NCBI RefSeq assembly: GCF_026571515.1
Contig: NW_026865440.1
Span: 248,001-312,000, forward strand
Source: Ruditapes philippinarum
Lineage: Eukaryota
Direction: 5' to 3'
Length of the DNA: 64,000 bases
Shown here one piece after another: positions 1,894 to 62,978 of the stretch. The notes under the pieces were generated by a model. That model saw nothing but the letters and a program-made list of their open reading frames with translations, did no database searches and was not told the origin of the DNA. Both the position numbers and the translations under genes were made by a program. How positions within the stretch are numbered: the stretch's first letter is position 1; every line of letters begins with the position of its first letter.

Positions 1894-4304
1894 TTATTCT
1901 TTACTTGGTTTTATTGTTTTGAACTCAAACCACCAGTCGTCATTGTCTTGTATCACATGAAAAGTTTGTGAACTCCGAATATTTACTCTAACACGGTCAT
2001 ATTCTGTCCTCGGTTTAATTTCGTGCATCTTTACTGTAACTGACTGCGGCAGATTTTTCAGCACGATAATAAAGTTCTGTAAACTTTCTGCAGACATTTC
2101 TATATCCCTCAAATCCACACGTTCAATATTTAACATGTCACGTGATAGTAACAATGAACTTTCATTTGGATTGATTCCCCACAACCTAACATTAACCAAT
2201 GACGGTGTTGTTATATTTAATTGTGGTCTCCCAGGTAATTTTACCAAGTGTAACTTTGATAGATTTGAATGTTGAGACAAGTCCAAGTTCCATCTCTTAC
2301 AATCATGGTCCCCATGTTCTTTACAGCATAACCCGTCCAATGTTATCTCTTTCATTGATTTTTGACCGGAGATAAAATTGAAAAATGTTTCCAGTATTTT
2401 GTGAGATAACATATAGTAGTGAATATCTAAATATTGTAAGTTTTGTACTCGCGCTAAATTTTCACTCAGATTTTCTTCATCATTTGTCCATGTGCCAGAC
2501 AACAAAGTAACGTACTGTAAACTAGGAAACAATATCTGGGTTATCTCAGCCTCCTTCTCCCTGATGTCATCCTTATAGTTAAGTTTCTGTATATGACGGA
2601 GATGTGTGAGAGAGAATAAATCTGTAATTTCACGTAAACTGCTGGAAGAACGGCCGTTGTTTATATTAAGTGATTTTATGTTGGCTTTATTCTGTTTTAA
2701 TAAACGTTGTAACTGCTTACTGTACACGGTGTGCCGGTCAATGAAGAAATCTTGTAAAAATAATTGAATATTTTCACTTTCAGGCATTTCTTGTAAACAC
2801 GACATGAACATTTCCTGTATGTTATACAATGGAGTATTGTACATGGAGAACTCGTAACCTGTCCTAGTTCTATAGTAGCGTGTTTTCTCGTCTTCATTTA
2901 TCACAGACATCAAATCATTTGATATTGCACACATCAAGTCAGCATTCATTCCACTTATAAATTCACAAATTTTTGACATGTCTAGAATATCTTGAACAGT
3001 TCTACAATTTTCTACAACAGTTTTCTGAGCGTCACTTTGAGAACTTATAAAAATGGCGGCAAAATATTCTTGCACTGTTTTGTGAGAAAAGGATACTTTG
3101 ATAATTTCTTTAATTAAAGTTTTACTTCTACTTTCTGACAGTATTCCTGAGAGAAGACTTAATTTCATGTCGTCTGCTTTGAGATATATATCAGCAACCA
3201 TTCTATCAAATACAAGCGTGTTTTCTCTTGTTTCATTGAATAATGTTTGGTAAGCTAGTTCTGCTAATGATGTTATAAGACTGTAAAACTTTTTACAAAA
3301 TTTTTGACCTTTGAAGTATTCTGAAATTTCACCGGCAGACGATTCACCAGCTGGTTGAACTTCCGGGTGTTTCTTTGACGTTCTTGATAATAGAAATTCA
3401 ATGATATTGGTGTAAATTTCATGTTTTGAATTTCCTATAGGAATCTTGTTGCACCATAAGCAAACTATATACATGAGGAGGAGTGGAATCACTTGCATGT
3501 GCTCTAGGCGACGGTCACGTATCACTTTATTAAAGTCCTGTCTTTTACTCTTCAGTATTCTATCGTCATGGACACCGGTCATTTTTCTTATAGCATTTTC
3601 TTCTAGTTGCCGCGTAGAATCTGCACTTAATTGAACCAATTCTGCTTTTTTGTTTATTTGACTTGTTTTGAGATTTGCAACTCCAAGCTTCCACGGTCGA
3701 GTTGTCGTTAAGATAACACAATTATCGCGTACGTATCGATGTGGGATTTTTTCTGTTACTTCGCTACAGCTATTATCAGGGTGAGTCCATTCATCAAGAC
3801 CGTCCAATATAATCAAGCATTTTTCTCTACGTAAAACTTCATATAGTATTGTAGAAGTAGGAAGTTTCGTCGTAATTTGCTGTTCAATCATATCGTCAAT
3901 GTTACAAACAGAGGTACTGTCTCTTAATAAAACCAAAAATAAGAACTTGAAGTCAAATAACGTCTTTAACTCGTCGTCTTTAAAGCAGGCGTAGTTTTCA
4001 TCGTGACAATGAGCTTGACACCACGTGACTGCAAGATATTTTGAGAAAGCAGTTTTTCCAAAACCTGCATCAGCTGATAGATAAATTTCTTGTTGATCTC
4101 GACTTCCGGTTGAAAACAGGTCTTTCAAAGACTTAATCGGTGTTCTCTCCTCTTCATGACAAGTTAAGGACTTCTTTTTGACGGCGACTATATCTGGCAT
4201 CACGTAGAACCCTGCTAGCGGTGTCTCTATTTCTTCAAGAAGCGGTGACAGAGGTATTGAACTACACCTTTTTCTGTAGAATTTAATCAGGTCGCCTTGA
4301 AGTT
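1894..4304 (-). CDS. Terminal exon: NACHT NTPase plus winged helix and degenerate LRRs
   Basis: Walker A ADAGFGKT, Walker B LIILDGLDEW, LTTTRP sensor, IPLLL, FSHKTVQEYFAA, C-terminal LxxLxL repeats. The frame is open upstream of the called ORF to the acceptor ttgcAG at 4306-4305 (LQGDLIKFYRKR...). Confidence 0.9.
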
Positions 4305-10300: not shown

Positions 10301-13300
10301 AGATCTTCTACTCGATCACTATACGATCGCTTCTCGACGTCTTATCTACTCGATCGCTACTTGAATTTTTTTGACATGTCTTTTGACAGCTAGACTGGTT
10401 CCCGATCGCTTGATTGTGCTTGATCGAATTGATCTGAAAGGCGGTGAGAATACATCATCACGCATTTTTTGTAGACTGAAAAAAGGCTAAAAAAGAACAT
10501 TAAGTAACAATATGTTATTGGTCTGCCGAAACAAAATACATGTATATGGTTTGCAGCAAAATATGAAGTAGTATGCACTAACTTTATCTACATTTAATGA
10601 GGTTGGGGTCATCTTCAAGTATTCTACTGATATTTTGATTTTTGCCATATAGACGTAGAAAAAATATGAGAACGATATAACAATTTTAATATTAGATGTG
10701 AGTCACCTTAAGGTTTATGCCGTTGATCGACCAATGTCCTTTCTTTATTAAATCCAACTGAGCATCACGTGATGTACAGAGATCTATCTACCTACATATG
10801 TACCTACCCACCTGATTACCTGCCTACCTACCTGCCTACCTACCTACCTGCCAAGCTACCTACCTGACTGCCTACATGCCTGACTACCTACTTACTACCT
10901 ACCTGCATACCTACCTGCCTGCCTACCTGACTGCCTACCTGCCTCCGTTAGGTCGATATGCTTTTAACATATTTTTCACAGATTTTCGATTGTAATTCTG
11001 TATTGCCCGGTCCCGTACAGTTTTCGTGCACTGCAGTTATTGTCGTGAGAGTAATTGATAAAAAAAAACATGAATTATATATCACTTGAAGGTGAAATAC
11101 ATGTATGTCTCAAATAAGAAACCAAAAGAAAAAGCCCGGTATCCAGCGTGTCGTGAAAACGTCTCATCATACAGTTACCTTAGTAACGTTAAACCGGCAC
11201 ACGACGAAAATGGCTTAGTTCATTCCTTTGATGCATCACATATAAGCGTCAAAATTCCGGGAAAAGTGTGTGTACGTATTCCTGACGTCACTAGAAAATA
11301 TGACGTCATTTGCCCTATTGTAACGTTTTCGTGTGGTCGTCAAAGAGTTGATAGATAGTTATTAAGGTATCGTATTTTTTGTAATCATTTTTTTAAAATC
11401 AATTAATCTATTAAATGACGCCGTAACTTTATATAAAGAATAATTTAGTTTGGTACACTATACTTTTCTACACATCAAAGGAGAGCTGAAGGGACGGCAG
11501 TTCAAAACACTTAATGATCTTCAAAATGCATTGTTCTGAGTAGTATAGGGGTCGGTTTGGCGTCACTTCTGCGCATGCGCGGCGGCCATATTGGATTTTT
11601 TATTTGGAATGACATCATCGTTCTATTTTGAGAATGTGATCATCCGTCTATTTTTAGAAATCTATTTTTAATCTCCCGGAAGTATACGGAGCTGACTCGT
11701 ATACACGATTTAGGGCTTGAATCGCGGACATTGAGGGTCAGGTCCTCGGCCCTAGACGGAGAGATAATTACCATTATGACAGATAAAAGAAATGTTTGTA
11801 AATAGATACGTACTTAACATTTTAATTTATAAAAAATAGTTTTTTAATAGGTTCAAAATAATATTGATACAAATATAACTCGTTTACTTACCTACATTTA
11901 GTAAGGAAATGACTGTCATAGCGTAACGTTCTTGTAGACTGCGCATGATCTATTTTTAGTCGCGGTATTTCACAACCACCAGGAGCTATTTCATCAGCCC
12001 CACGCGGGTGTCAATGAAAGAAAAAGGCATTAAGTACAGTCGCCGCTCAGTCTAGATTCACAATACCTAGCGGCACTATGTTGAACAAAAACCCTTTATC
12101 CTTCGTTACTAAATATAACTTTTTATTAATCACAAAAGAATCTATTATCCTTTCAAACGCAGCGACCGTCAAGTACAGTCGCCACTTAGTCTAGATTTAC
12201 AATACCTAGCGGAACTATGTTGAACAAAAACCCTTTATCCTTCGTTACTAAATATAGCTTTTCATTAATCACAAAAGATTAATAGAATTGACGGACCTTT
12301 TCTCTTCGCATGCATTCACAAATTTACGCTTTATATATCGTACCCCTTAATTAGGTTCCTTTCAAGTGCATACTACGGTCAACTGATTGCATATTTTAAA
12401 CACGGTTGCCCTTAACAACTGGTCAAATTTTGTGATTTTTATGAACACTTTAAATTCCCGTTTTTTTTTTTACGAAAATTGATTTTGAATGAATACACTT
12501 ATGTATACGAAAGTTGTAAACTGATTTTGAATGAATAACTTATGTATAAGAAAGTTGTAAACTGATTTTAAATGAAATTTATAATACATTTAAGCTATAA
12601 ACCGGTTTTTTATCGTTTGGGCAACCGTTTACGCTCAAAATTTTCGAGATAAAGTCGTTATAAGATAGAATAAACCGAAAGCTTTCGTTTTGACCCGGGG
12701 TTCTCGATTCGATTTTCAGCCGTTTTTGAGTTATGACGCAAGAGCGATTTTAAACCCTAAATTGCGAAAGTCAATAAAAACGTTAGAACTTTTTACCAAT
12801 CGATTCGTCTCGTCGCGCTGATTAAGAAAATATATAGTTTTATGGGTTTATCTTTTACCGTTTTCGAGTAATTCGAGTTTAAAGTCACCGGAAGTGACGT
12901 CACAGAAATTTCAAAATCGATTTTTTCCGTTATTACTTGACCGAATATACTCGTGTTTGGTATCGTTGGAAAGCATTTTACCACACCTGTTACCTGACGC
13001 TATTCAAAAAGCCATTGGACCGGAACTGAAATCACTGAAGCGTAAAAACGTGTTTTCTGTACCACGTCCGGACCGAACTAAGGCGTGTTTGGTATCAAAC
13101 GAAATGTCTTAAGCCGCTCTTTATGAATACGGACTAAAATCGAAATTAAAATCACTCATGCGTAAAAATCATTAAAATAACTAAAATAAGCTTACCCCCA
13201 GTCTTTACTCCTTGCCTATCAAACTATTTATGACAAGTTACTATAGCCTATCGTTAAACGGTCCAGTTACGACAGGTTTAAACCGGTATTGCTATTTTTG

Positions 13301-16300
13301 ATTAGCCAATGAAATTGAAGAACGGTGACGTTTAAAAATAGACAGCCTCGTTTTGAACCCACTCTTTTTCATTAACCAATCAAAATGGAGAACGATGACG
13401 TTTAAAAATAGACAGCCTCGTTTTGAACCCACTCTTTTTCATTAACCAATCAAAATGGAGAACGATGACGTTCTTACCAAAAATAGATATGACTCGCGCA
13501 ACGGAGAGTATATAAGAGAGCGCTTTAGCCCCCTCCGTCATTCTGACTTCAGAACTCTAACCGACAACATGGAAAACATAGCAGCTACTTTCGAAATGAT
13601 GGTGAATTCTTTCACCGACGCTGAAGAATTAATGAATTTTGCTGCGACATGGGGGATACAGGATTCCCCCGGGGTGCGGTTTCGACTATTTCAGTTAAGG
13701 AACCCACAATATGGAGATGACTTTGTGAATGAACAAATGGAAAGATTACTCGACAGTTTAAACGACACAATGCAGAACCGAGAAGACACGGAAAATTTTG
13801 ATTTGGCGCTAGAGTACGTAAGAGAGCAAGAGGAAATCGAGGGTGCAGTAAGAGCACTATTATTTGACGAAGAAATGGATAAGATGGCGACTGCTTGTGT
13901 GGAAGACGGGGAGTGGAGCCCTCAATCACCAGGGCTACAAGTAGGGAGTGGGGATGAGCCTCAAGCGGGACCCTCTCATAGGCCCGACGCCCCACGGGAG
14001 CTTCAGTATACGATAAGTAAAAAATCAGAAAGGACATACGCAACAAAAGCAGCGGTGGATCGTACATATCAAGTGAAAATTGATGAACAGTATAATGGAC
14101 AGAGACTGCAAGATGTGAGACAAGGACTTCACCAAATGTTTGAAGACGTGCTCGAAGAAGCCCGGGGCAATTTGGCGGGGAACGATTTGGGTCGTGTCGT
14201 TATTCATCATCAAGGATTACACGACCCCATCATTGTGCCCCTCCAGCCCTGGGACCAGTTGACCGCCAATAAAGTGATGGAAATCATCGAAAAGGTACTG
14301 AATAGCAACCAAAACTTGTCCATCGATGAAAGCTTCTATATTTCTATAGGCTCCATCGAATTACCAAAAGGAAGCGGTGGTCCACGACGAAGAATCACTA
14401 AACTAAAAGGAAAAAATAATTCGTTAAAGTTGAAAACCTCTATAGTGACCATCGAAAATGATGACCAAATGTGTATGGCCAGGGCGATCGGGGTGAGCTG
14501 GGCCAAGTTAAACAGATGTAGCCAAGACGAATGGAAAGAAATTGCTAAAAACCGCCAAAAGAAGTCTAATATACAGCTTATACTAGAACATCAGCAAGTG
14601 CCAGAGAGTTACTATAAACATCTACGTTCAAAATCTCGCGATGAACAGAGACAACTAGCGGTAGCCATCAGCCAATTAGCCGGAGTGCCCTTAGATCGGT
14701 CCGCTAGTTTAAACGATGTAGAGGCGTTTGAAGAAGTGTTGGGAGTGCGCGTGATGGTGGTCAGTGCTAGACTAGGTAACAAGTTCATAACTAGCCCTAG
14801 TAAGGACAAGCGTCCATGTATTTACCTGTATCTCGTGGACGACGACCACTTTCATGCCATTACCAGCATCACGGGATTCTTCAGCGCGATGTATTTCTGC
14901 GACCAATGCCTCAAACACTACGACCATAGAGAAAGACATCAGTGTGAGACCTCGTGTATAGTATGTAAGACGGATAATTGCCCGGAAACAGAAAATACAG
15001 TCAAATGTGATAACTGCAATATGACATGCAGATCAGAAAAGTGCTATAATCAACACAAGACAGTACCGGTACACAAAAAAGGAAAATGTAAAGGAAAACC
15101 CAATGGACTATCCCAATGTCAAAAATACTGGAAATGCCCAACATGCTACAAAGTCATAAGGACCGACAAAAGGAAAAAAGAAGACCATGAGTGCGGAGAA
15201 TATTTGTGTAACTCGTGCGAACAATATGTAATGGAAGGACATTTATGTTATCTCAGATCAATACCAGCCAAGGAACATTATAATTCTAAATTTATATTTT
15301 TTGATTTTGAATGTTGTCAGGATGAAGTGTCAGAGTGTGAAAATGGATATGTAGCGAGTAGAAAAAGAGATTGTAAAGACTGTCAATCACATGAGGTATG
15401 TAAATCTTGCTCTAAATGTCAACACTGTAAATCATCTTGGTGCGGAAAAGCCACTCATCGTCCCAATTTCGTAGTAGCACATACTGTATGTCCAAAATGT
15501 ATCGATAAACCATTGACCCCCGAATCTATATGTAAAAAATGCGGTACGCGGTGCGACGAATGTGACAACTCTGAGCTACATGATAATGAAGACCCAGGAC
15601 CGTGTCCGGGTAAATGTGGATTCAGAGAAGTCACGTTCGAAGGAGCCGACACTGCAGAAAAATTTGGTGAATGGTTGTTTTCCCCTCATCACGAATATTT
15701 CAAAGTATTTGCTCATAATATGAAAGGTTACGACGGCTATTTTCTGTTAGAGTACTTAATAGACCAATCCATGAGACCGGACAAGATTATTTACAGTGGC
15801 TCCAAAATTATGTATATGACAATAGAGTCGGATTTACATATCAAAGTGATTGACAGTCTCAACTTTTTACCTATGAAATTGTCCGCCCTCCCTAAAGCGT
15901 TTGGATTGACTGAATTAAAGAAAGGTTGGTTTCCTCATTACTTCAATACTAGCGAGAATCAGAATTATGTAGGCCCGTACCCAGATGCTCAGTGTTATGG
16001 TCATGATTTTATGAGTGAGAAAGAGAGAGCTGAATTGTTAGTGTGGTTGAGTGAGAGAAAGGACGACGTGTTTGATTTTAGAAAAGAAATGTTGGATTAT
16101 TGTAGAAGTGATGTAGATATTTTAAGACAAGCGTGTTTGAAATTTAGAGAGTTGTTAATGAGTGCTACGGGTGAAAGAATAGAGGTGGTGAATGAAAAAG
16201 GAAAGAAAGAAAAAACGTGGGTCGGAGCCGTGGATCCATTCGATTCCGTGACCATAGCTTCCGTCTGCATGAATGTCTTTAGAACCAAATTTTTAGAAGA

Positions 16301-19300
16301 AGAATGGAAAGTAAAATTAGAGGGCAGGGATGATTGGATACCTTCAAAATTAATAGACGGAAAGCTTTATGTGTTGCGCGAAAACGAATGGATCCTCGAA
16401 ACCAAACTCACGGGTGAGAAAGTAAGTGAGACAGAATTTGTAAGGACACCCATAGCGAAAATTTCTCCTAATGGTTATAATGATCAATATAGCGAAGCGT
16501 CCATACAATGGTTAGAATGGGTGGCGTGTACAAAAAACGTCAAAATTCAGCACGCTTTAAATAAGGGAAAGAAATCTTTACTGGGAACACGTTACAAATT
16601 AGACGGTTACTGCGAGGAAACAAACACGGCCTATGAGTTCCATGGTTGTATCTTTCATGGATGCCCTGATTGTTTCGCAGATAACCGAGAAGAAACGCGT
16701 CACCCACTCACCAACCAATCATTAGATGAATTGTACGCGTTAACGATGAAAAAGAAAGCTTACATCCAACAGTTAGGCATGAAATACGTTTGCATTTGGG
16801 ACCACGAATTCAAAAAACAAAAGATTCAAAATACTGAACTGAAACAATTCGTAGAAAGCTTAGATATAATTGATAGGTTAGACCCGAGGGAAAGTTTCTT
16901 TGGGGGTCGCACCAATGCCAGTCAACTTTATTACAAAGCGGAAGAACAGGAAAAAACTAAGTACGTGGATTTTACGAGCTTGTATCCATGGGTGAATAAG
17001 TATTATCAATATCCCGTAGGACATCCTACCATCATAACCAAAGATTTAAAAGACATTAAGGACTATTTCGGTATAGCTAAGGTCAAAATACTTCCACCTA
17101 GAGGATTATACCATCCCGTGCTACCGTATCGCTCAAATAACAAGTTGAAATTTCCCCTATGTAGGACCTGCGCCGATATGAAAATCAAAACCCATGCGCA
17201 TGTTCTGAACAAGAAAGAGAGTTGACTGGTACGTGGTGTACTCCGGAGATTCAAACGGCCATTCAGTTAGGATATCAACTTAAAAAGATTTACGAAGTAT
17301 ACCACTGGGAGGAATCCACACAATATGACCCAAAGACCAGATCAGGGGGACTGTTTGCCAATTACATAAACACGTTTTTAAAGTTTAAGCAAGAGGCAAG
17401 CGGTTCTCCTGACTGGATACACAGTCAGCAAGATATGACAATTATGTGTCTCAATACTTACAGAAAGAGGGAGTTTCGTTGGATCGGGCAAACATCTCGA
17501 AGAACCCAGGTTTGAGAGCTCTGGCTAAATTATGTCTCAACAGTTTTTGGGGTAAGTTTGGTCAGAGACTCAATATGCGCCAGACAGAGTTCTTTCACGA
17601 ACAACAGGTCAACCTCTTTTTCCAGTTGTTTGCCGATCCGACGAAAGAACCTTTAAATTTTCATATACTTACCAATGACATGATACAAATAGAATGGCAA
17701 TATAAACAAGACTGCCAACCCGAAGATAATAAAACGAACATCTACTTAGCTACGTTTACTACATGCTGGGCAAGACTCAAACTCTACAGTGTGCTCGAAA
17801 AGCTCGATAGACGAGTGCTGTATTACGATACGGACAGCGTCATCTATGTGAGTCGCCCTGGACAGTATGATCCGCCATTAGGAGATTACTTGGGTGAACT
17901 CACGGATGAGCTGAGTGGAGGGGAGCATATTGTAGAATTTGTGTCGGGTGGTCCTAAAAATTATGCCTATAGAACCAATAAAAACAACGAAACTTGTAAA
18001 GTCAGGGGTTTCACATTAAATTATACAAATAGCCAACTCATCAACTTTGAAAGTGTGAAAGATATAGTAACAGACCCACAAAAGAATTCAAATATCGTAG
18101 TAACAAACCCTAGTAAAATTTGTAGAGATAAAAGAAAAAGAAAATTGTACAATAGGGAAGAAAAGAAAAGTTATCAGATGGTGTATACCAAGCGTAGAAA
18201 ACTGGACAATTATGATACAGTACCATATGGATATTAGAATAAATTATTGCTGTTGTAAATATTTGTTCTTATTGTTTCGTTTTCTGTCACATGCGTTAAA
18301 AAAGTGTAACTGCTTTTTCAATTTTTGTCACTACTGATTCAAAAAGTGTTACGCATATTTCAGTTTTTGCACGTTTACATGTAATTTTCCATAGGGTATG
18401 TTTCAAAAAGTGTCACTGCTGTGTCAAAAAGTGTCACTGCTTATTCAAAAAGTGTCACTAATGTGTCAAAAAGTGTCATTGCTGTTTCAAAAAGTGTAAC
18501 TACTTTTTTCAATATTTGTCACGTATGATTCTGTTTTTTGTCACATGTGTATTAAAAATGTATATTATTGAATAAAAGTATGTAAGAATATGCAGTCTTG
18601 CTTATTTCATTCTATCTTTCGTAAGAATATGAACGATACCGAGTCCCATGAACCCGAAAGGGACACGTTTATTCACTTTTCAAAAGCGGATGAAGAAATA
18701 CGTTCTAACGGAGACAAGTGGCATTTATTAGGTACACGAGTACCCCAGGCTGAAATTGTCTACTTTTGCCAAATGATTATTGTCTACATTATTATCATCG
18801 TCTCAATTATAAATCTATCCCTTCAAAACGGTACTAGCGAATTGTGGATAAGTTTGCTAAGCAGTTGTATAGGATACGCCTTACCTAGTCCTAAGCTGAA
18901 GAAATAATAATGAAGGCATCTCTACCTTTCGAACCATGCTCCAGTATGTGTATAAGTGGACAGACGGGAAGCGGAAAAACGCAATGGGTGTACAAGTTTT
19001 TGCTTAACTTGAGAGATATGTATTCTAAAGACCCACCATCACACATCTTATATTCTTATGGTATTCATCAGGACTTATTTGATGAAATGGAACGGTCCAT
19101 TCCAAATTTTTACAGTAAACGAGGTCTACCAACAGCGGAAGAAATGGATGACTTTACCAAAGACAAAAGACATAAGCTGATTATCATTGATGATCTCATG
19201 CATGAAGTGATGAAAAACAAAGATATGGAGCTACTCTTCACGCAAGGTTGCCACCACAGGAGAGTATCTGTCATACTTATCACGCAAAACCTGTATCCAG

Positions 19301-52300: not shown

Positions 52301-55300
52301 TATGTTTCCACGTTTAAGTATGAGAATATGTCTTATATTAAAAAAGCGAGAGGAAAACGTTTACTGTATCGGGTGAATAAGCTACGTCGAGTAACATACC
52401 TTGTATATATGTATTATTTGTATCATAGTTTGGGCTCTTTTCTGTTGAAAATGTGTCTTAGTTAAATCGTATACATATCCACCGTGCGTTAACTGGAGTG
52501 CAGGTATTAGTAACCCGCACTCCAGAGCATTATTGGCTCATTTTTGCTGGTGTTTACTTATTGTGACGGCATAGAAAGTGAAAGCGACAGAAATATCATA
52601 TTAAGATGCTCGTTCATTGGTAATTTTTCTCTGGGGTATCATATTGTGACAACAAGGAGCGTGTTTTTATGTTTGACTATGATACAAAAGAGAAAGAACA
52701 TCAAAACACTCGGCAATCTGATTAATAATCGGGAGCTACGCCCCCTCGTATAAATCAGATAACCTCGTGTTTCGATGCTCTTTCCTTTACATAGTAAACA
52801 GGTGCTGGATAGTAATTATGTTGTTGATGATCAAGGGGTGTTTTTGTTAATGATAATTTGACCATTATTGACATGGACAATGTGCCGTTCGTAATATTGT
52901 ATTAGAGAATCTGAACACAGTGTAATTTTGTTAAAACAAAAATAACTAAAATTTCCCCCATTGCTGAATGGGCGAATGCATATCTACTAGCTGCCGTGTG
53001 CACACGTCGTCTAATGATCAGGGTTTTTAACATTTCAAACCATTTATTGGTTAATAAAGTGTTCAGTTTAGTCTAATTATTGTTAACTTCATTCACAAAA
53101 AGATAAACATACTAAAATCATATAAAACGTACTTTAAAAACTCTGATAGTCTGTGTAAAGACGGGGTATATAAATGGAAATTGTGTAGAAAATATTGCTT
53201 TTTTGTTATTTTCTTAAAGCTGCTGTCGTTTTTGTATTGTGTTTCAAGTCAATCCAATTTCAAAGTCTGAAAAAGTGCCTTCAGCGACTGAGAATTTGCA
53301 CATTTAAATCTAAACGGTTTTTTTTTAAAAACGAGTTAACATTTCTTCATTTTAAAATCTCCGAAACAACCTTTGAAAGTAAAATCCGAGTATCTTTTTA
53401 AAGATACCTCTTGTTTGTTTTACCGCCAAATAATATAAAGAAAATACCAACTTTTCAGTCATGTTATAGGAAACTCAGCTTCCCATACATAGTTGTTAAA
53501 AGTGATCACGATTTACAGTTTTTAGGGACGCGTAAACAGAGGGCAAACCTTTATTCATCCCTGGTTTAAACCAGTATATAATATTTTTAAAAGAATAATC
53601 ATTAAACCAAGGAGGAGATAACTCTTATAATGAAGATGCTACACTTCTGAGCCTCTTCAAACATGATGTGAGTGGTGCCAAAGAACGAATATCTTAAGTC
53701 TAAAGGCAGCACACCACACTAATTGAAGCTACAGTTTCGAATGGCCAGGGAGGATTTCATGGAATTAGTGACTATTGTGGTTTTAAATGACATTGCTTTT
53801 AAACAGCATGCTCGGTGAAAACAAGTAATTTTACAGAAAGTAACANNNNNNNNNNNNNNNNNNNNNNNNNNNNNNNNNNNNNNNNNNNNNNNNNNNNNNN
53901 NNNNNNNNNNNNNNNNNNNNNNNNNNNNNNNNNNNNNNNNNNNNNNNNNNNNNNNNNNNNNNNNNNNNNNNNNNNNNNNNNNNNNNNNNCAGATATTAAT
54001 GAATTTTGAAGAAGAAACATTTAGAAATAAAGAAGTTACACAAAGAACAATATTGCTTTTAATGAAAGTTGTAAGTTTAAGGGGGTTATTCTGCTAAATT
54101 TATGATCCTTGTCACATATGATGTTGATAATAAGAAACATAAATTTCAATTTTAAAGTTAATACCTTTAGAAATAAAGAAGTTTTAGTGAAACATAGATT
54201 TTATGAAATAAAATCTGTCAAAATCAGGACGCTGTTGCAGACACTTGATAAGTAGGACCCATCTACATATACACCCCAGAGTCAAGCTAAAATTATGTGC
54301 ATACTCTCTATACTGTCATTTATCTATATTTCAAGTTTCATTAAAATATTTTCACTATTTTGAGTCTATTTGTTGCCACAACAACCTTTTTTTTTAATCT
54401 CAAGACTGCCATCTACCCATATTTTTTAAGTTAATAAAATATTCTTTGGTACTTTCTGCGTTATTAAGGATCCAGCTTTGTGAACGGGCAATATTGTAAA
54501 TTTTAACCAAAAGGAAGAAAACTCGAAAAATAAAATTATCCATGCGGACAGCACTTACGAAATAAATTTTTGTTGCCATTGTTGTTGTCTTTTTTTGGTA
54601 CACATGCATTTCTGTTGGTTTTCTTTTACGAAAATAATTCATTATGTCAAAGTTAGCAATCAACAGTGCCTTGAAACCGTCTGATTATTCATGCCGGCGT
54701 CTAAGTCCTCTAACAACTTTTGTTGTGCAGGGTTTATCAATAAAATTACATCATATAAGTACGCTCATTGGTGATCTTTCATTTATGTACATAATTCTCA
54801 AATAACAAAACGTGTAATGTAAATAATAAATGAATAAGTATTTCCTATTGAAAGGGGTTATATGGTCAATTATAAAGTGTAAAACGTTGACAGTTCATTT
54901 CAAAGCTTTTAACGAGCATGTTTAAGACACAAGACAGAAAGAAACCGTTCCGTTTTGTTGTAATTATATAAGATCCTGTATGTCATAAATAAGGTTGTTA
55001 CCACACTTAAGTGAAATTTATATATGTATATAATTATGCTTCTTAAACGATTTTCAAACAACGAAGAATATGTAAAATATGTACTGAAAATATTTGTCCT
55101 CATTATGTGTAATCATTAAAATATATGCATTCATATCTGATTGAACGAAATGACTTAGACTTTATAGGAACTAAATTTCAAATTAACATGAAATAGAAAT
55201 TTGGTAATATCTTTACAAATAATGATTTTTGGAACATACAATATTGATAAATCTTCATTTGAGCATTATATTTATGATATAAAACCATATAAAATCAGTA

Positions 55301-58300
55301 AAAGGATCTTAAGATTATTAAATAATTATTTATCACTTGTTTCATCCACGGGATTGATTGATGTGCATGTATCTTTTGACAATTTCCACACAAAAGTTAT
55401 GAACTTTCGGTTACATTGATAGATACTGCGGCACATTTTAAGATTTTCTTGAAGTTGATTGTGACTGAAAACCTAGAAATATTGTAGATTTACATTAAAT
55501 ATTTACCGCAAGATATTAAATTTGTTTTATCTGCAAAGTGGAAGAAATCGATTATAATCTCCGAAAGAGACAATTTTCATTTTTAAACACTGTTCTATTG
55601 TTGACGTTTCTGGCAATGACAATGGTCTGGAAACGCAATTATCTGCCATATCAAACAGACAAACGGAGATTTATGAAGTTTGTCAAAGCAATTTACGAAA
55701 AAATAAACGAGTTGATACTTATCAAAAATTGGAAACGTCGGGATCAAAACGCTACAGAAGTACATTTTTTAGTATTCTAGTATATTCTTTTATCAGCCTT
55801 TCTAAAGATATCTCAATAATGAAGTATTCATTAAAAAATAAAATATTTAAGCTTAAGAAATAACAAACCTGTCGTTTGCCGTCTTTTGATCTCATCAACA
55901 TCTCTCTTCACATCAGTTACATGTTCCTTTATGTCTTCAAGGTCTTTCTTCACGTCAGTTACATTTTTTTTCACGCCTGTCATTTCCTGTTTTAGTCGGT
56001 CAACATCGTCTTCATACTTCCACTTTTTTATTTCTTTCTGTATCCTTTTCTCTTCTTCCAGATCAAGAGGGCAAGTTTTGAATTCGTCGATTTTTTGCTG
56101 AATATTCAAAGCTGGAGAACTTAGACGAACAAGTATCTAAAACCGGAAATGAATAACTTTATCATTTCAGTTCCAATGTTTGATAATCTTGTGTTTATCA
56201 AAGATGTTGACACAACAATTTATATGTAAATAAAAGTATTAGACATGAAAGTCAAAATTTACTGCACAAGAGTCATGACGATCCTCTTTATTATAAAGGC
56301 TCTTGATGACAAGGGACAATTAACACTGTTTACCATCAATGAAAAAATACGTCTTAATCTTTTACTTTCACAAAGGTAACATCTGCATCTGATATCGTCA
56401 TTAATGACAGCAAAGTAACGATTGTGGATTCAAATGTGGATGCTTTTAAATTCAAGCCCCAGTAAGGGAAATCTATGACCCCCGAGGTGTGGCAAGTTTA
56501 ACACCAGGGACGTCCTCTAAACTATGTTCCCTGTAAAATATCTAAGCTGTCTAATTGACGCACTCAAACTACCTAACAATTTTGAAGCACTGAATGTATT
56601 GGAAACATGAAATATTTAATCACTGAATGTACTGGAAAACCTGGAAATTTTGAAGCACTATAATAACTAGAAAGATCAAAATTTCGTAGCATTAAAAGAA
56701 CTTAAAACCTGAAAATAGTGAAGAACTCAAAGTATTGCACAACCTTAAAACTGTGACGCACTGTAGATACTAAATGAAACCCTTAAATCGTGATTTTTTT
56801 AATTACTTGAATTCTGAAAATCGAGAAGCACTGAATGAACGGGAAACCTGAAAATTGTTAAACACTATAAAGCAATGAAATTAACCGAAAATTGTGACGT
56901 ACTGAAATAATTGGTACTTGAAAATTTTGAAGGACTGATATTACTGATACTTGAAAATTGTAACGCACTGAAAAAACTGTACGTCGAAACTTAGTCAAAC
57001 ACTGAAATCGTGAAACACTGAAAGCACTTGACACCTGAAAGTCGTGAAACACTAAAGGTACTTGACACCTGAAAATCGTGAAACACTAAAAGCACTTGAC
57101 ATTTAATAATCGTGACTCACTCAAAGTACTGATACTTTAAAATTGCGAAACATTGAAAGTACTTGACACCTGAAAATCGTGAAACACTGAAAGTACTTGA
57201 CACCTGAAAAATGTGACACACTGAAAGTACTTGACACCTGAAAATCGAGAAATACAGAAAGTTCTTGACACCTGAAAATTGTGAAGCACTGAATGCACTT
57301 GACACCCGAAAATCGTGACGCTCTTAAAGTACTGATACTTGAAAGTGTAAATGTTTTTTTTAAGTCTAAATACACCAAGCGTTCGCAGAGGTAAGTCAAA
57401 ATAATTCAGTTAGTGTTAAAGATTTCCAAAATTTACAAAAAAATATTTTCCAATCAAATGATCTTCACTGTGGAAGTAAAGTCTGAATTATAAAATTTGA
57501 AATTCCTACGTAGATCAAATTGGACATTTTGACAGAAATCACCTCTGAGAGGTAAGCTCAAAATTGTATTTTGCTTTTTTGCGTTGCTTTATTCAATAAC
57601 TAGTCGAGTCGATTTACACGGTTAGAATAGTTGTTCTTGAAGCAACGGAGACCTACTTCAAACGGAACAATAGTCCGAAAAATCACTTCCAGTCCCGTCA
57701 TGTCTAAAAGCCTCAATAGTGTCACTTAGGTAGAGCGAGAAGTGCTGTAAATAATTTCAATACTCAAATGAATCCATGGGGAAATTGGCTCGTTTGAAAT
57801 TCTTTGCTTGTTTTGACGTATATGTAGCGTCAACATGTATACTTATAAATGTTTAACGCTACATGCTTATATGGATTATGATTTTATATGATTTATTAAA
57901 TTTGAATATCCTATAATATGTTTCAATTCTTTAAGAATACATCATTTACCATATATAAAACTCTTTCTTTATTTAAAAAGTTGATTGAAAGGTTACAAAG
58001 ATAATAATAATACTATGAAAGCGAAATGTGCTTACCTGTTCAATATCATTCAACCAAACTGTGAAATCATTTTGTTGTATTGCAGTCGTTGTTGGTATAT
58101 GACTTATCTGAAATAAAAAAAACAATATGTTTCACCTGAAATATGAGCTCAAATTAACGAATTGGAGTTAAACAATCCCCCTCTTCTTTCTTTGCTTCTA
58201 CAGACCACCCACTACCCCCCTTCCAAAACAAACCAACAACAACACAGACCATTTTGTCAAGGGAGACATTGATAATTTTGAATATGAAAGTAAAGTAGAT

Positions 58301-61300: not shown

Positions 61301-62978
61301 TTTTATCATGTTATTAATAAAACACCTAGGGGTTTTCATGACAGTAATGATAGCTCGAAAAATTTCATCCAAAATGTCAGATAATATTTAAAAAATATTC
61401 ATGCTAACGGCTTTATTATCCTTTGATTCTTTTATGTTCACAGTGTTATCGGATTGTTTCGTGAGTGAAGTATTTACTTGGAATGTTTCATAGGGGCAGT
61501 ATCATCTCGAAATTTTTCATGACGTCAGTTTTATAACGCAGTGTTTTCTTGACGTCAATATTATCTAGGATTCTTTTATGATGGCAGTGTTATCTCGGAT
61601 TGTTTCATGAGGGAAGTATTATCCCGGATTGTTTCAGTAGGGAAGTAATATCTCGGATTCTTTCAAAGTGACATTATTATCTCTGATTGTTTCATGAGAG
61701 AAGTATTATATTTTATTGTTTCATGAAGGATGTATAATCTCGGATTGTTTTTAATGACGGCAGTATAAGCTCGCATTATTTCATGACTGCAGTTATATTT
61801 CGGATTGTTTCATGATGGAATATAAGCTCGGAATGTTTTCTTGACGGCAGTTTTATCTCGGATTAATTAATGACAGCAATATTATCTCGGATTGTATCTT
61901 GACTGCAGTAATATTCCGGATTCTTTTCTGAATGCTGTATTATCTCAGATTGTTTCACGACAGCAGTAATATCTGGGATCGTTTCTCCACGACAGGATTG
62001 TCTCGTATTCTTTTCATGCGGGCAGTATTACCTCAGATTGTTTTATGATGGCAGTTTTATCTTGGATGGTTTCTTAACGTCAGTTATATCTCGGATTGTT
62101 TCATGACGTCAGTTTTATTCTGAATTATTTTATGAAAGTATCAATATCGTAGCCTATTTGAAGAAAGCAATATAACCTCGGATAATGCCGTGATGGATTA
62201 CTTCATGACAAAAATAGAAGTCCATAGTTTTTCATGAAAGTAATGATAGCTCGAAAAAAAAATGCATCGGAAAAGTAGGATAAAAAATTCAATTCATGTT
62301 TAAGATGTTCATGTTTTAACCTTTAAAGTACGACTACACAGCTACTGTAAAGATTTGCAATACACCGAATTAGTTCTTGTCTAGACAATATTAAAAGTTG
62401 TACTATTATATATGTTTAAGTATGATGATTGATTAAATTATATTTAAGTTAAAGTTTGGCAGAATTTCATTACTTTTAAAATACGTAGATATTTATATTG
62501 CCAATATATACATTTACTTTTATTCTTCTGTATTGCCAAGGCATGAATTTACAAATTGCATTTCGAATATACTTACTTTATTTCGGAAATTCCTTAACCG
62601 ACATATGTCTGCTTCCATTGTTACATCGGTATGTGCTGGTGTTGCCCTCCAGTTAAATTTTGTATTTAATCCAAAACAGTTCAGGTTTCTCAGAAGACAA
62701 ATAATCAGCGTGATGTCCAAATCTGCCGAAGTTGGGACTTTACAACCCGCTGGAAACAATAGGTCATATTGGACCTGGGTTATAATGCCGCGGTTTTTCA
62801 AATGTGTTATTGTTGACTTTTCTTGAGTCAACCACGCACTGAACGTTATGCATTGAGATGTCAAGGACTGGTCCAGTATATTTCTCAATACCAGGAGACC
62901 ACCATCAATGACTAGTATTTGTAACCGAAACAAAAATATACGGTTATCTAGCGTCTTTGGCTGACCTCCGGTTGCCAT
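1894..62978 (-). CDS. Spliced host gene: HEPN(DZIP3-like)-coiled coil-NACHT-LRR NLR-like protein, ~1078 aa; join of 62577-62978, 58036-58107, 55869-56136, 30092-30175, 1894-4304
   Basis: All junctions are GT-AG with compatible phases (0,0,1,1). The summed length of 3237 nt gives one open frame. The HEPN RxxxxH motif (RNK|ISH) is completed across intron 1. Extra exons, for example in the N gaps, cannot be excluded. Confidence 0.7.
6937..7055. mobile_element. Short palindromic MITE
   Basis: gatagatgatgtgttttaaagtag...ctactttaaaacacatcatctatc inverted arms. Confidence 0.6.
7056..8490. mobile_element. Non-autonomous TIR DNA transposon (GAG termini, Sola-like)
   Basis: ~25-bp TIR gagtcaccgtacctgtgctcgaccag versus ctggttgagcactggtccggtgactc. 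The superfamily is inferred only from the termini. Confidence 0.55.
7795..8337. mobile_element. Nested MITE with an internal tRNA-like segment; partial inverted copy at ~30890-31190
   Basis: 25-bp TIR tgtccaacaacattgacctggcact / agtgctaggtcaatattgtttgaca. Reverse-complement similarity to 30890-31190. Confidence 0.55.
9920..10456. mobile_element. MITE (PIF/Harbinger-like termini), GATC-rich interior
   Basis: TIR atgttctcaccgccgatcagatcaactcgatc / gatcgaattgatctgaaaggcggtgagaatac. Confidence 0.6.
10785..10945. repeat. Degenerate (CCTA/CCTG)n microsatellite
   Basis: Directly visible. Confidence 0.9.
11539..13159 (+). repeat. Left terminal inverted repeat (~1.62 kb)
   Basis: Near-identical reverse complement of 26853-28321. 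Has internal ~140-bp and ~46-bp subrepeats. Confidence 0.97.
13301..13516 (+). promoter_or_regulatory. pPolB promoter: 70-bp tandem units (CCAAT, TGACG, TTAAAAATAG) then TATATAAG
   Basis: Units start at 13301, 13371 and 13441. TATA at 13509-13516 lies ~55 nt before caacATG at 13569. Confidence 0.6.
13569..18237 (+). pseudogene. polB: Protein-primed family B DNA polymerase (pPolB), two -1 frameshifts (~17180, ~17437)
   Basis: Exo motifs FFDFEC, HNMKGYDG, YCRSDV; pol motifs YVDFTSLYP, KLCLNSFWGKF, YYDTDS, KNY. Spread over ORFs 13455-17225, 17222-17515 and 17446-18237. The real start is probably 13569 because a TATA box lies downstream of 13455. Confidence 0.95.
18295..18510 (+). repeat. ~21-bp tandem repeat tcaaaaagtgtcactgctgtg between polB and the ATPase unit
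   Basis: About five adjacent copies at 18403-18505 plus dispersed copies. It follows an AATAAA at 18238. Confidence 0.85.
18629..18907 (+). CDS. Small two-TM membrane protein of the Maverick
   Basis: Hydrophobic IVYFCQMIIVYIIIIVSIINL and LWISLLSSCIGYAL segments; ends 2 nt before the ATPase ATG. The ORF could start at 18590. Confidence 0.7.
   Translation: MNDTESHEPERDTFIHFSKADEEIRSNGDKWHLLGTRVPQAEIVYFCQMIIVYIIIIVSIINLSLQNGTSELWISLLSSCIGYALPSPKLKK
18910..19563 (+). CDS. A32/FtsK-HerA-like DNA packaging ATPase
   Basis: Walker A GQTGSGKT, Walker B LIIIDDL, GCHHRRVSVILITQNLY. Confidence 0.95.
   Translation: MKASLPFEPCSSMCISGQTGSGKTQWVYKFLLNLRDMYSKDPPSHILYSYGIHQDLFDEMERSIPNFYSKRGLPTAEEMDDFTKDKRHKLIIIDDLMHEVMKNKDMELLFTQGCHHRRVSVILITQNLYPGGKHARTIALNTWYMVLMKNLRDVSQVGILGRQLYPGKSKGFVKAYEDALSTKHGYFLVDMSPHAEDKYRLRTHVFPGEDPLVYKLT
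19559..19897 (+). CDS. Small basic helical Maverick protein (paralog of 23170-23517); no in-frame ATG
   Basis: Frame is open from 19559: HFLHLLKSTTTTQRKALLSKITKQQLKALTQIAYNIL..., which aligns with the 23170-23517 protein. Confidence 0.65.
   Translation, partial: RKKQCETSKSNHGRHFLHLLKSTTTTQRKALLSKITKQQLKALTQIAYNILRFKIRLTPSEKAQLKRQRRVIHLIGNRSIGFKQKREAIRHKPRVIYTLVKIAFAYLEPVLA
19897..20067 (+). CDS. Small ORF MEKFILVPYEKYQRML... (56 aa; below the ORF-track cut-off), disrupted by an 11-bp duplication
   Basis: ATG overlaps the previous stop (TAATG). ggaaaaaggcg is duplicated near 20021-20043. Confidence 0.55.
   Translation: MEKFILVPYEKYQRMLQLKTKGFGEVTEYKPTKLSLPPPGERKKAGKRRENLKKLQ
20110..20180. 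terminator. Bidirectional poly(A) region between convergent Maverick transcription units
   Basis: Plus-strand AATAAA at 20133-20138; minus-strand AATAAA at 20170-20175 and 20116-20121. Confidence 0.55.
20158..20583 (-). pseudogene. Adenain-like cysteine protease with an in-frame TGA at 20305-20307
   Basis: NTD..GPGKHWV, FFDSLG, Q-DTK*DTCGLYC. The frame continues after the stop to 20158. Confidence 0.92.
20580..22343 (-). pseudogene. Double jelly-roll major capsid protein interrupted by a MITE
   Basis: ELSLFVTPPTDTS, YPYKAYI, DLFQQSKLLINGV, G.YSKNPFNF|KHYNC..VDGQSLP, LELKF. Removing 20927-21435 plus one TTAA restores a single frame. Confidence 0.92.
20927..21435. mobile_element. 509-bp TTAA-specific MITE (Kolobok-like termini)
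   Basis: TTAA at 20923-20926 and 21436-21439. 19-bp TIR agggagacacaggcaaaat / attttgcctgagtatccct (2 mismatches). Confidence 0.9.
22346..22711 (-). CDS. Uncharacterised Maverick protein with a basic NLS-like tail (candidate virion core protein)
   Basis: Packed between mCP and MCP; PVKLVSPVAQAIEIAKSEV; KRKK...KRKR tail. The ORF track starts it at 22735. Confidence 0.7.
   Translation of the reverse strand: MGSIEVYDHKQQKWVPYTPDPEKWYQHFKDLRDGYVKADHKGRYIVGSGNHLRKMAEMKQSPPVKLVSPVAQAIEIAKSEVNRMKVEEGEERKKGPQKRKKAPTPAYKPSKRKRLNPEFQF
22699..23130 (-). CDS. Minor capsid (penton-like single jelly-roll) protein
   Basis: FYLYLSS.DS....NN...DF...FP......GNW..A.TE; LYLCCNLI; YVPV....FNSL.LYLRDE pattern. 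Confidence 0.85.
   Translation of the reverse strand: MSDFYLYLSSRDSQDIRKNNDPADFYIQFPKSYTFDGNWICAVTETSLTCDFTPRSKRLYLCCNLIQQTYVRNTQVPVLRNVEVGSRYKKLQFVEYSHPVYVPVTVNHFNSLHLYLRDEDLNSVEFKSNDLHCVLHFKKVWAP
23170..23517 (-). CDS. Small basic helical Maverick protein
   Basis: Intact 115-aa ORF within the structural cassette; LLRSLAS..VSLTRKKSLL. Confidence 0.75.
   Translation of the reverse strand: MNQSQVYRKLNFLLQLKDATVAVRKNMITNMTGGQMKAIAQVAKRLVNGTINPPRRDVQLLERRRNLLRSLASENVSLTRKKSLLRRHHSLVPVLLRPPYLFDTIMDEIRTTREA
23537..24064 (-). CDS. TATA-binding protein (TBP) core homologue, element-encoded
   Basis: Two TBP repeats: NVVCSANL...DL...YDPKTFPGLI...LVFSNG...CNG and YARRIQRLGF...YEPELFPSL...FHSGKVVITG. 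Intronless, no N-terminal tail. Confidence 0.93.
   Translation of the reverse strand: MIITNVVCSANLSCSIDLKQLCYRIANARYDPKTFPGLIWQHKTIGGNCLVFSNGVINCNGKALSVTEGRQRLRQYARRIQRLGFTVRLKEIKLITISASHTLSNALDLQLLAKERQVVYEPELFPSLNFKREGAHFCCFHSGKVVITGIKNLSQIDDVVYPVLIELELYTRKKE
24121..24148 (-). promoter_or_regulatory. Candidate promoter of the TBP/structural cassette: GTCACGTGA E-box plus GTATATAAAAC
   Basis: Both motifs lie in the 84-bp integrase-TBP gap. Confidence 0.5.
24149..25288 (-). CDS. int: Retroviral-type (rve) integrase with C-terminal chromodomain
   Basis: WDMDLMD, TDRGMEF, AE(I)CIKTLK, YNSTIHRSLG; chromodomain YHVEKIL...LVRWLHWPKKFDSWI. The start may be MSNWK at 25261. Confidence 0.96.
   Translation of the reverse strand: MYLYLLSINMSNWKQYLSSLYFDTSNPASYSGVEKLYQYIKSEGKFKIGRHKIRKWLQSQQAYSLTRGARRKFPRSRVIVEGIDSQWDMDLMDMVDLAKHNDGYKYVLMVIDIFSRFAYCEPIKTKKGGDVVNALERILSGSRKPKTVRTDRGMEFRSKEVNKYLQDMDIHHFYALNTETKANFAEICIKTLKHKLFRYMIKNRTQRYVDVLRNIVLSYNSTIHRSLGDKPINITKESEGESRLQQYLLRTKGRPTNNRIRHYKFKVGQTVRVSHVKSVFDREYSQKWTGEIFKIKSRFKRDNVCVYTLIDWANEEKIDGTFYEQELQAVSVDENTEYHVEKILKKRTRNKRKEVLVRWLHWPKKFDSWIPEKDLTQYS
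25326..25475 (-). CDS. Putative 49-aa ORF MLTLVCMVWIWLRHYQVRRE...
   Basis: ATG lies 2 nt after the BIR stop, fills the BIR-integrase gap, hydrophobic N-terminus. Confidence 0.4.
   Translation of the reverse strand: MLTLVCMVWIWLRHYQVRREYREATEHLLDILERYIEDTRTHTLYSTVL
25478..25927 (-). CDS. Single-BIR inhibitor-of-apoptosis-like protein with an FG-rich tail
   Basis: RLKTF...LASAGLYY...CFRC...W......EH.KWSPNC (CCHC zinc ligands). The true start is probably 25894 or 25858, as a TATA box overlaps the first ATG. Confidence 0.92.
   Translation of the reverse strand: MKTPRSFGINKMNVTDCKPLNKNMEYYDNRLKTFETYPKQMLPDKYQLASAGLYYSGKADVCACFRCHVKLSAWERSDCALREHYKWSPNCEYIRIVGAPQQKPTPIGGFGAFVSTTRPTPCGFGGFSSTTTAANLFVNNKAITTHQRH
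25925..26019 (-). promoter_or_regulatory. BIR gene promoter: TATA, CCAAT and three MEF2-like boxes
   Basis: GTATATAAA ~25927-25935; ATTGG 25953; TTATTTTTAG 25961; CTATTTATAG 25986 and 26010. Confidence 0.55.
26030..26524 (-). CDS. Tandem PC4/Sub1 (ssDNA-binding, whirly-like) domain protein with a C-terminal Cys/His cluster
   Basis: LGNQRYVQV.EWKG..RVDIREW...PTKKGIWL..W and LGGNVFC.V....VDIRQFW...PTRKGICL; C-terminal CY...H......C..C. Confidence 0.9.
   Translation of the reverse strand: MANNSRCKYSLGNQRYVQVNEWKGELRVDIREWQDDKPTKKGIWLTLMRWKNLTDAIEYVDQTLQNSQTYNTHLGGNVFCNVGEGSVCVDIRQFWKPENDVVPTRKGICLRPAEYSRLKELMPEIGRNLPELDAVVPCYLQSDHMNQLGALQCSECNPNDCRNW
26577..26676 (-). promoter_or_regulatory. 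PC4 gene promoter: CTATAAAAG plus three CCAAT boxes
   Basis: TATA 26577-26585; ATTGG at 26602, 26629 and 26672. Confidence 0.6.
26853..28321 (-). repeat. Right terminal inverted repeat (~1.47 kb)
   Basis: Reverse complement of the left TIR, lacking ~12171-12339 and with a 17-bp duplication (agctttcggtttattct) near 27329-27363. Confidence 0.97.
28454..28675. mobile_element. Palindromic MITE
   Basis: tgagccgtgccatgacaaaaccaacat...atgttggttttgtcatgacgcggctca; near-full-length hairpin. Confidence 0.85.
29015..29183. mobile_element. Tc1/pogo-like MITE
   Basis: TA-cagtcaaac...ggtttgactg termini with gtggtctt subterminal repeats. Confidence 0.6.
30092..30175 (-). CDS. Small phase 1-1 internal exon of the NLR-like gene (DETRQNRQNEGNIFQRFLERRRYNRMKT)
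   Basis: ttcttcAG acceptor and GTaaga donor. It is 84 nt, open, and joins in frame to both neighbours. Confidence 0.6.
30574..30728. other. Assembly gap
   Basis: N run. Confidence 1.
31586..31716. repeat. Degenerate (GAT)n microsatellite
   Basis: Directly visible. Confidence 0.9.
33930..41496. repeat. ~69-bp satellite array with internal inversions
   Basis: Unit tagatatttcatgtggcaatctttgacaatgtctccagccaaatctggtacatatagagatatgcgttc. Orientation flips at ~39100, ~39970 and ~41178. Confidence 0.95.
41684..43440. mobile_element. Two head-to-tail copies (~0.9 kb) of a non-coding element with a terminal hairpin (Crypton-like, tentative)
   Basis: Units start attattaccc(c/t)tcac at 41684 and 42591. 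Each ends in a long inverted repeat. Confidence 0.6.
46765..50902 (+). mobile_element. Decayed CR1/L2-group LINE ORF2 (APE endonuclease + RT), (TTG)n tail
   Basis: LNILTINVGGL, GDFNSR, TVDYF, SDVHS; KASGYDNI, YRPITL, QAG.RKG, KQAFD, GVRQG, YADD (49050), YKYLG, ILLYGSEIWG. Many stops and frameshifts. AATAAA then (TTG)n at ~50870-50902. The 5' boundary is uncertain. Confidence 0.92.
48179..48253. repeat. (AAT)n microsatellite inside the LINE
   Basis: Directly visible. Confidence 0.95.
53846..53989. other. Assembly gap
   Basis: N run. Confidence 1.
55869..56136 (-). CDS. Internal exon: end of HEPN region plus heptad coiled coil
   Basis: ttttAG acceptor, GTttgt donor (phase 1). Reads ILVRLSSPALNIQQKIDEFKTCPLD..., with heptads VKKNVTD/VKKDLED/IKEHVTD/VKRDVDE. 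Confidence 0.8.
56575..57345. repeat. ~34-bp minisatellite gaaacactgaaagtacttgacacctgaaaatcgt
   Basis: Well conserved at 57010-57320, degenerate upstream. Confidence 0.9.
58036..58107 (-). CDS. Internal exon ISHIPTTTAIQQNDFTVWLNDIEQ (contains the HEPN His)
   Basis: tttcAG acceptor, CAG|GTaagc donor, 72 nt, phase 0-0. Confidence 0.8.
58785..62260. repeat. ~29-bp satellite tatctcggattgtttcatgacggcagtat
   Basis: A ~3.5-kb array of diverged copies in intron 1 of the HEPN gene. Confidence 0.92.
62577..62978 (-). CDS. First coding exon: DZIP3/hRUL138-like HEPN domain
   Basis: MATGG start; QYDLLFP...DLDITLIICLLRNL...ADICRLRNFRNK; donor AAA|GTAAGT at 62576. Likely acceptor tttacAG at 63021-63020. 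Confidence 0.85.

Follow-up and report, generated by a model that had tools for sequence, protein, structure and literature searches.

The window analysed here, 64,000 nucleotides of Ruditapes philippinarum contig NW_026865440.1 (GCF_026571515.1, positions 248,001 to 312,000), carries one intact five-exon member of a large HEPN-coiled coil-NACHT-LRR family of this clam. The family members are likely cytoplasmic immune receptors. With a probability of roughly 0.6, the encoded protein would be an NLR that senses a ligand through the variable face of its LRRs, oligomerises through NACHT, pairs its HEPN domains through the coiled coil, and cleaves RNA.

Gene Structure and Annotation

The gene is located on the minus strand and spans 61 kb, with canonical GT-AG sites at all four junctions and introns 1-4 of 4.5, 1.9, 25.7, and 25.8 kb. 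The spliced exons 1-5 form a single frame of 3,237 nt encoding 1,078 aa, whose only stop is terminal. The features of the locus are as follows.

62577..62978, minus strand: exon 1, starting with ATG; aa 1-134, the bulk of the DZIP3-type HEPN including D25, R132, and N133
58036..58107, minus strand: exon 2, 72 nt; aa 135-158, contributing H137 of Rx4H and the final HEPN helix
55869..56136, minus strand: exon 3, 268 nt; the end of HEPN and a heptad coiled coil; phase-1 donor
53846..53989: N run in intron 3
30574..30728: N run in intron 3
30092..30175, minus strand: exon 4, 84 nt, phase 1-1; basic linker continuing into the first helix of NACHT
11539..28321: Maverick/Polinton in intron 4, not part of the receptor
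1894..4304, minus strand: exon 5, 2,411 nt; the entire NACHT-HD1-WHD-HD2-LRR cassette

The earlier note had joined ORFs at opposite ends of the window through small exons into one frame and had seen the motif RNKISH only after splicing, and it was right on both points: the exon 1 donor is a phase-0 GT immediately after RNK, and intron 1 separates RNK (with R132) from ISH (with H137). The gene is not hidden, as had been stated there. A protein search with exon 5 retrieved P0001, the uncharacterized LOC132729007 of R. philippinarum (RefSeq, 1,078 aa); since this protein and the spliced product of the window are identical letter for letter, the gene is already annotated. The linker peptide of exon 4 is also present in P0013, P0023, P0039, and P0025.

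Domain Composition and Predicted Fold

HEPN_DZIP3 and NACHT, the two profiles expected from the earlier reading, both exceeded their Pfam cut-offs. HEPN_DZIP3 (PF18738) was matched at residues 47-189 of the spliced protein with 102.8 bits (profile positions 5-143 of 144), compared with 75.6 bits (profile 5-93) on exon 1 alone, and the head was assigned to a PF18738 cluster of the atlas at 0.97. NACHT (PF05729) was found at residues 354-509 with 32.5 bits against a cut-off of 26.7. The Pfam search of the spliced protein returned no LRR family. The AlphaFold2 model, built from 62 sequences (pLDDT 82, pTM 0.68), shows a helical head, then NACHT, and roughly ten strands in repeated arrangement. 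The long helix predicted at 200-245 (coiled coil) is of low confidence (pLDDT 50-57). The LRR part mostly has a pLDDT of 80-95, with repeated strands at 794-1072, and about 9-10 LRRs with conserved LxxLxL anchors were assigned to 818-1072.

The top Foldseek match of the whole model was NLRC4 (E 8.5e-24). A wide fold search gave NOD2 (Z 22.0, rmsd 10.2, 647 residues aligned) and the NACHT of NLRP3 (Z 20.9, rmsd 3.9 Å, 414 aligned), and LRR proteins matched model residues 700-1078 at Z 12-15.6 (for example, 9b62_G at residues 747-1066 with Z 15.6 and rmsd 4.2). The modelled layout is thus that of an NLRC4/NOD2-like NACHT followed by predicted C-terminal LRRs. The matches listed in both whole-model fold searches, mostly to NACHT and LRR, included no HEPN chain; the model of exon 1 alone (pLDDT 52) was too weak for a fold search, and the PDB sequence search yielded one match (E 0.18, a coiled coil) and none meaningful for the head. 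Together with motif conservation, the Pfam and fold results bear out the view of an animal NLR in which a HEPN head replaces a death-fold domain.

Exon 5 encodes four motifs usually named in NACHT proteins, all of them intact:

Residues 353-360: Walker A, ADAGFGKT
Residues 440-448: Walker B
Residues 474-479: sensor-1 TTR
Residues 681-692: WHD motif

The Walker A had been described as atypical, and this did not hold. The usual P-loop pattern is [AG]x4GK[ST], which ADAGFGKT fits. ADAGFGKT is not unusual but ordinary for the family, because it is the commonest form among the relatives (49 of 120, with AxAGxGK[TS] in 101 of 120) and because its key residues (A353, G356, G358, K359, and T360) are unchanged in 62 of 62. 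D443, D446, E447, F681, and E688 are likewise unchanged in 62 of 62.

HEPN Motif of the Predicted RNase Site

According to the available part of PMC3710099, R-x4-6-H with a polar residue after R and an upstream acidic residue constitutes the RNase site, as based on mutagenesis of RNase L, RloC, and PrrC. The HEPN of the window has all of these elements (R132-N133-x3-H137 and D25). Of 31 HEPN-bearing relatives, 27 have R-x4-H intact; the exceptions are two models without the exon-2 stretch, one without both residues, and P0122 with R instead of H. At the genome level, the motif His is kept in 29 of 30 exon-2 copies (the own copy counted). D25 and N133 are unchanged in 29 of 29. On the strength of this conservation, ribonuclease activity is predicted for the head.

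A non-catalytic head, which would bind RNA or partners as a sensor, decoy, or adaptor without cutting RNA, is less likely. The portion of PMC8662601 seen leaves the choice between sensor and RNase undecided and leans toward a sensor. The heads are interchangeable with CARD-like adaptors, the HEPN cassette also occurs on trypsin-like and Roc-COR-Death proteins, the latter without the His, and 13 of the 18 DUF4559-type heads checked have no R-x4-6-H match and lack the motif Arg. On the other hand, DZIP3-type copies down to about 50% identity retain R, N, and H as well as the acidic residue upstream, and the diversifying sites lie in the LRRs rather than in HEPN.

DUF4559 is a CXorf38-type HEPN according to the accessible text of PMC3710099. 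One DUF4559/CXorf38 subgroup (P0003, P0006, P0048, and 10 relatives) has the His without the motif Arg, so HEPN heads need not be catalytic; two other subgroups retain RN-x3-H, and active and inactive heads possibly stand side by side in this class. In a model from Mercenaria (P0128), a HEPN with a lost motif is followed by CARD and NACHT.

Family Size, Transcript Reads, and Assembly Integrity

At least 150 copies of exon 1 (150 scored of 236 candidates) were detected in the clam genome, along with 40 matches to exon 2 and 41 to exon 4; for exon 5, the list comprises at least 58 (of 704 candidates, 56 were scored). The copies use common splice positions: 30 of 30 loci have the phase-1 acceptor of exon 5, 30 of 30 exon-2 loci have the acceptor before IS(H), and 27 of 30 exon-1 loci have the donor after RNx, while the other three, unmatched by the pattern, also end in RN. 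In contigs picked by hand from the match lists of exons 1, 4, and 5, the exon order recurs: 10 other contigs carry exons 1 and 4 at a distance of 17-85 kb, 13 carry exons 4 and 5, and 5 carry all three, with spans of 25-99 kb. In the paralog L098 (G000:C5883), exon 2 is frameshifted and exon 5 contains stops, and in L091/L093 (G000:C12320) exon 2 is duplicated 800 bp apart; both point to birth-and-death turnover of the family.

Four RNA runs were mapped to exons 1-3, with 4-12% of each run covered. The junction check by RNA-seq, proposed in the earlier note, gave weak support. Three spliced reads from one run join exons 2 and 3 at the predicted sites and derive from a diverged copy; in the same sample, no spliced read crosses the exon 1-2 junction, and no read with this copy's own letters joins exons 1-3. 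Coverage in two runs is thin and unstranded, with introns as high as exons. A word search with exon 5 listed no RNA run that contains it; 19 other sequencing runs shared 30-36% of its words, a proportion that carries no weight as evidence. The mapped reads, and the apparently recent Maverick insertion, would agree with a family that works as described but in which this copy has been silenced or damaged, the 16.8-kb insertion in intron 4 being one conceivable cause. We regard this as improbable: the five exons have open frames bounded by canonical splice sites, paralogs span similarly long regions, and the sample is a small part of each run.

A chimera, in which the HEPN exons and the NACHT exon of the 61-kb model come from different genes across the N runs, is very improbable. 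It could draw on the two N runs in intron 3, on the other heads borne by the nearest NACHT relatives, and on junctions 3 and 4, which have no reads. A mis-join is nevertheless unlikely because the paralog exons occur in the same order on other contigs, the splice positions are shared, and there is no spare family exon: tblastn with 128 family proteins found no further one within the window or its 10-kb flanks. The same search speaks against the introns containing another NACHT or HEPN gene, and this reading was rejected. Moreover, P0013, P0023, and P0039 share the head, linker, and NACHT clade of P0001, and a mis-join would merely pair two paralogs of the same layout.

Intron Content

The Maverick accounts for 16.8 kb of the gene length and of the 25.8 kb of intron 4. 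Mavericks are defined by long terminal inverted repeats, AGTAGT ends, and a 6-bp target duplication. This one ends in AGTAGT...ACTACT, is flanked by the target duplication GTTCTG, and has inverted repeats 96-99.5% alike; the insertion looks recent. Protein-primed polymerase B (PF03175), integrase rve (PF00665), and A32-like ATPase (PF04665) were found above the Pfam cut-offs. The element looks broken, since the polymerase is divided between two ORFs in different frames (13446-17222 and 17413-18231) and the capsid-like region is also in two ORFs (22379-21348 and 20954-20586). The candidate structural ORFs (capsid, protease) had no Pfam or PHROG match.

Cargo genes lie at 23543-26548 on the minus strand: one resembles the TATA-binding protein (PF00352, 99.9 bits, two repeats), one is an inhibitor of apoptosis with a single BIR (73 bits), and one is a double PC4 (82 bits). 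A paper search on a Maverick/Polinton with such cargo found none. The Maverick end recurs at no fewer than about 40 scored places in the genome. At G000:C2516:217308-221553, two Maverick-like ends (97-99%) face each other about 4 kb apart and probably represent a short non-autonomous derivative; similar facing pairs, 3-16 kb, occur on other contigs. In addition, LINE-type retroelement fragments (RVT_1, 29.8 bits) lie at 47080-49925 in intron 3, and degenerate tandem arrays of 69-bp and 29-bp units lie at 36323-41324 (intron 3) and 58783-62135 (intron 1).

Selection on HEPN, NACHT, and LRR

The pooled pairwise dN/dS was 0.31 for exon 1 (HEPN, 27 copies) and 0.31 for residues 277-700 (30 copies), compared with 1.1 for residues 801-1078 (also 30 copies), the latter value being inflated because dS is lower in the LRR part (0.135 vs 0.21). 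The 27 exposed codons of nine LxxLxLxx strands had a pN of 0.475 and a pN/pS of 2.85, and 0 of 10,000 random 27-codon sets from the region reached that pN, with repeat starts set by motif after the per-site table had been seen and with non-independent pairs. The leucine anchors of the LRRs had a pN/pS of 0.26, and further variable patches lie near 758-766 and 799-800. These estimates indicate purifying selection on HEPN and NACHT and diversifying selection on the codons of the predicted ligand face, the pattern given by a ligand-binding face under diversifying selection. That this face would read polymorphic self molecules (allorecognition, foreign cells) instead of microbes is most improbable: diversifying selection leaves the ligand unnamed, and fungal NLRs reportedly act in allorecognition (PMC13449251), but HEPN heads are linked to anti-RNA defence in the available parts of PMC9646362, PMC3710099, and 10.1101/2022.07.19.500537.

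Proposed Head Exchange on a Near-Identical Sensor Exon

The entire NACHT-LRR is encoded by a single exon behind a phase-1 intron, and its closest relatives bear DZIP3-HEPN, DUF4559, or CARD-like heads, as assigned from automated gene models. P0001 is 88-92% identical in NACHT to P0004, P0003, and P0007, whose heads have no blastp match to its own. Conversely, the heads of P0001/P0053, P0035/P0072, P0006/P0078, and P0004/P0044 are 78-85% identical, with NACHTs at 52-54%. P0013, P0023, and P0039 agree with P0001 in both parts. Accordingly, the claim of an RNase-type rather than a death-fold head stands for this copy but does not extend to its close paralogs, some of which have CARD-like heads on a near-identical sensor exon.

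A wide tree was built from 59 of 110 NACHT cores, 51 having been dropped (37 headless models, 13 unclassified, and 1 with a 21-residue match). It requires 18 head-label changes, against a minimum of 2 and a shuffled mean of 24.2, so head labels are still clustered on it; on its starred branches, the three head classes must change at least 9, 8, and 2 times. The tree of the closest 21 is star-like and poorly resolved. Within this close clade, a single origin was rejected for CXorf38 heads (p-AU 0.009) and not for DZIP3 (0.33) or CARD (0.09) heads.

At three N-free loci, the CARD-like exons end in phase 1 and are separated from the downstream NACHT exon by 6-11 kb that contain no other family exon. 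About 1 kb of intron before the exon 5 acceptor is common to the gene of the window and a CARD-type copy. The CARD-like head scored 19.1 bits in Pfam, under the cut-off, and 0.78 in the atlas; its identification as CARD is a lead. The simplest reading of the head swaps would be recombination in the long phase-1 intron before exon 5. Outside the NLRs, P0121, P0122, and P0124 carry the HEPN-coil cassette before a trypsin-like peptidase, Roc-COR-Death (motif His lost), and an unclassified C-terminal domain, with 77-78% identity for the trypsin-like and Roc-COR-Death models.

A broader picture, which we put forward tentatively and at slightly less than even odds, is a combinatorial clam NLR system. 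A one-exon, fast-diversifying NACHT-LRR would be recombined via the phase-1 intron with CARD heads and with HEPN RNase heads of two types. In the DZIP3-HEPN form, the receptor would be a ligand-gated ribonuclease and thus its own enzyme effector, like bacterial Avs/NACHT. A search of paper titles found none on exon or domain shuffling or head exchange in mollusc NLRs, for which supplements may hold domain-combination tables, and none naming Ruditapes NLR.

Comparison with Known Systems

The novelty implied in the earlier note does not stand: the DZIP3-HEPN-NACHT NLR architecture, the Rx4H motif, and the RNase inference are already published for pearl oyster, cnidarians such as corals, and nine invertebrate taxa, as the consulted parts of PMC9646362, PMC8260672, and PMC8662601 document. 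PMC3710099 (in part) had recorded fusions of DZIP3-HEPN with NACHT and LRR as early as 2013, together with an expansion in oyster. The nearest parallel is the DZIP3/hRUL138-like HEPN-NACHT(-LRR) group of Pinctada fucata, for which the available text of PMC9646362 reports more than 50 HEPN-NACHT proteins and the motif in 194 of 202 HEPNs. These proteins share with the clam the three-part layout, the lineage expansion, Rx4H with Asn after Arg, and the inference of RNase action and pathogen sensing. They represent a separate expansion in another bivalve, and that text gives no exon phases, selection test, or recent head exchange.

HEPN-NLRs are also described in cnidarians (PMC8260672, PMC10236652) and in nine invertebrate taxa (PMC8662601, which calls for molecular tests). 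In nine cnidarians, NACHT is combined most often with DZIP3-HEPN, with 17-83 copies in anthozoans; the parts of these three papers seen give domain counts only. The CXorf38/DUF4559 HEPN-NACHT proteins provide a second HEPN head on the same sensor exon in close clam paralogs, but belong to another HEPN family with no blastp match to the head of the window and with one subgroup devoid of the motif Arg. In Corbicula fluminea, DUF4559 is found on 45 of 99 NACHT proteins (PMC8298618, in part).

Vertebrate NLRC4, NOD2, and NLRP3 have the same NACHT-HD1-WHD-HD2-LRR fold and intact nucleotide motifs, yet they are 13-18% identical, exist in few copies, and have a CARD/PYD head that recruits a caspase or kinase and is not an enzyme. 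The bacterial NACHT/Avs proteins, in the portions of 10.1101/2022.07.19.500537 and PMC13581612 seen, follow the same sensor-NACHT-enzyme logic, with HEPN among the RNase effectors and variable effectors on related NACHTs; they differ in intronless genes and mostly other sensors, whereas exchange in the clam would proceed via a spliceosomal intron. What is added here is the set of at least 150 HEPN-exon copies, the motif His in 29 of 30, selection on the LRR face, and one NACHT-LRR exon behind three kinds of heads. In head exchange and LRR selection, the family resembles bacteria and fungi.

Proposed Mechanism and Significance

Other HEPN RNases need pairing. In the favoured reading, a foreign ligand would bind the variable LRR face, and NACHT would exchange nucleotide and oligomerise as NLRC4 does. 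The coiled coil would pair the HEPN domains and form the active site from D25, R132, N133, and H137, and the cut RNA would stall translation or kill the infected cell. The sensor exon would move between heads by recombination in the phase-1 intron before exon 5, and sensor specificity and output would therefore be reassorted separately. No RNase, ligand, or oligomer assays of HEPN-NACHT NLRs are reported in the available parts of PMC9646362, PMC8260672, PMC10236652, and PMC8662601.

The single gene of the window contributes little by itself. The clam family, in turn, offers natural controls in the form of near-identical sensors with RNase-type or CARD-type heads, and it is relevant to disease resistance in a farmed species. 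HEPN-headed proteins rank among the most frequent NLRs of corals and bivalves; if it is true that they cut RNA on activation, they would represent an animal NLR output that is independent of caspases and parallels the logic of bacterial anti-phage defence.
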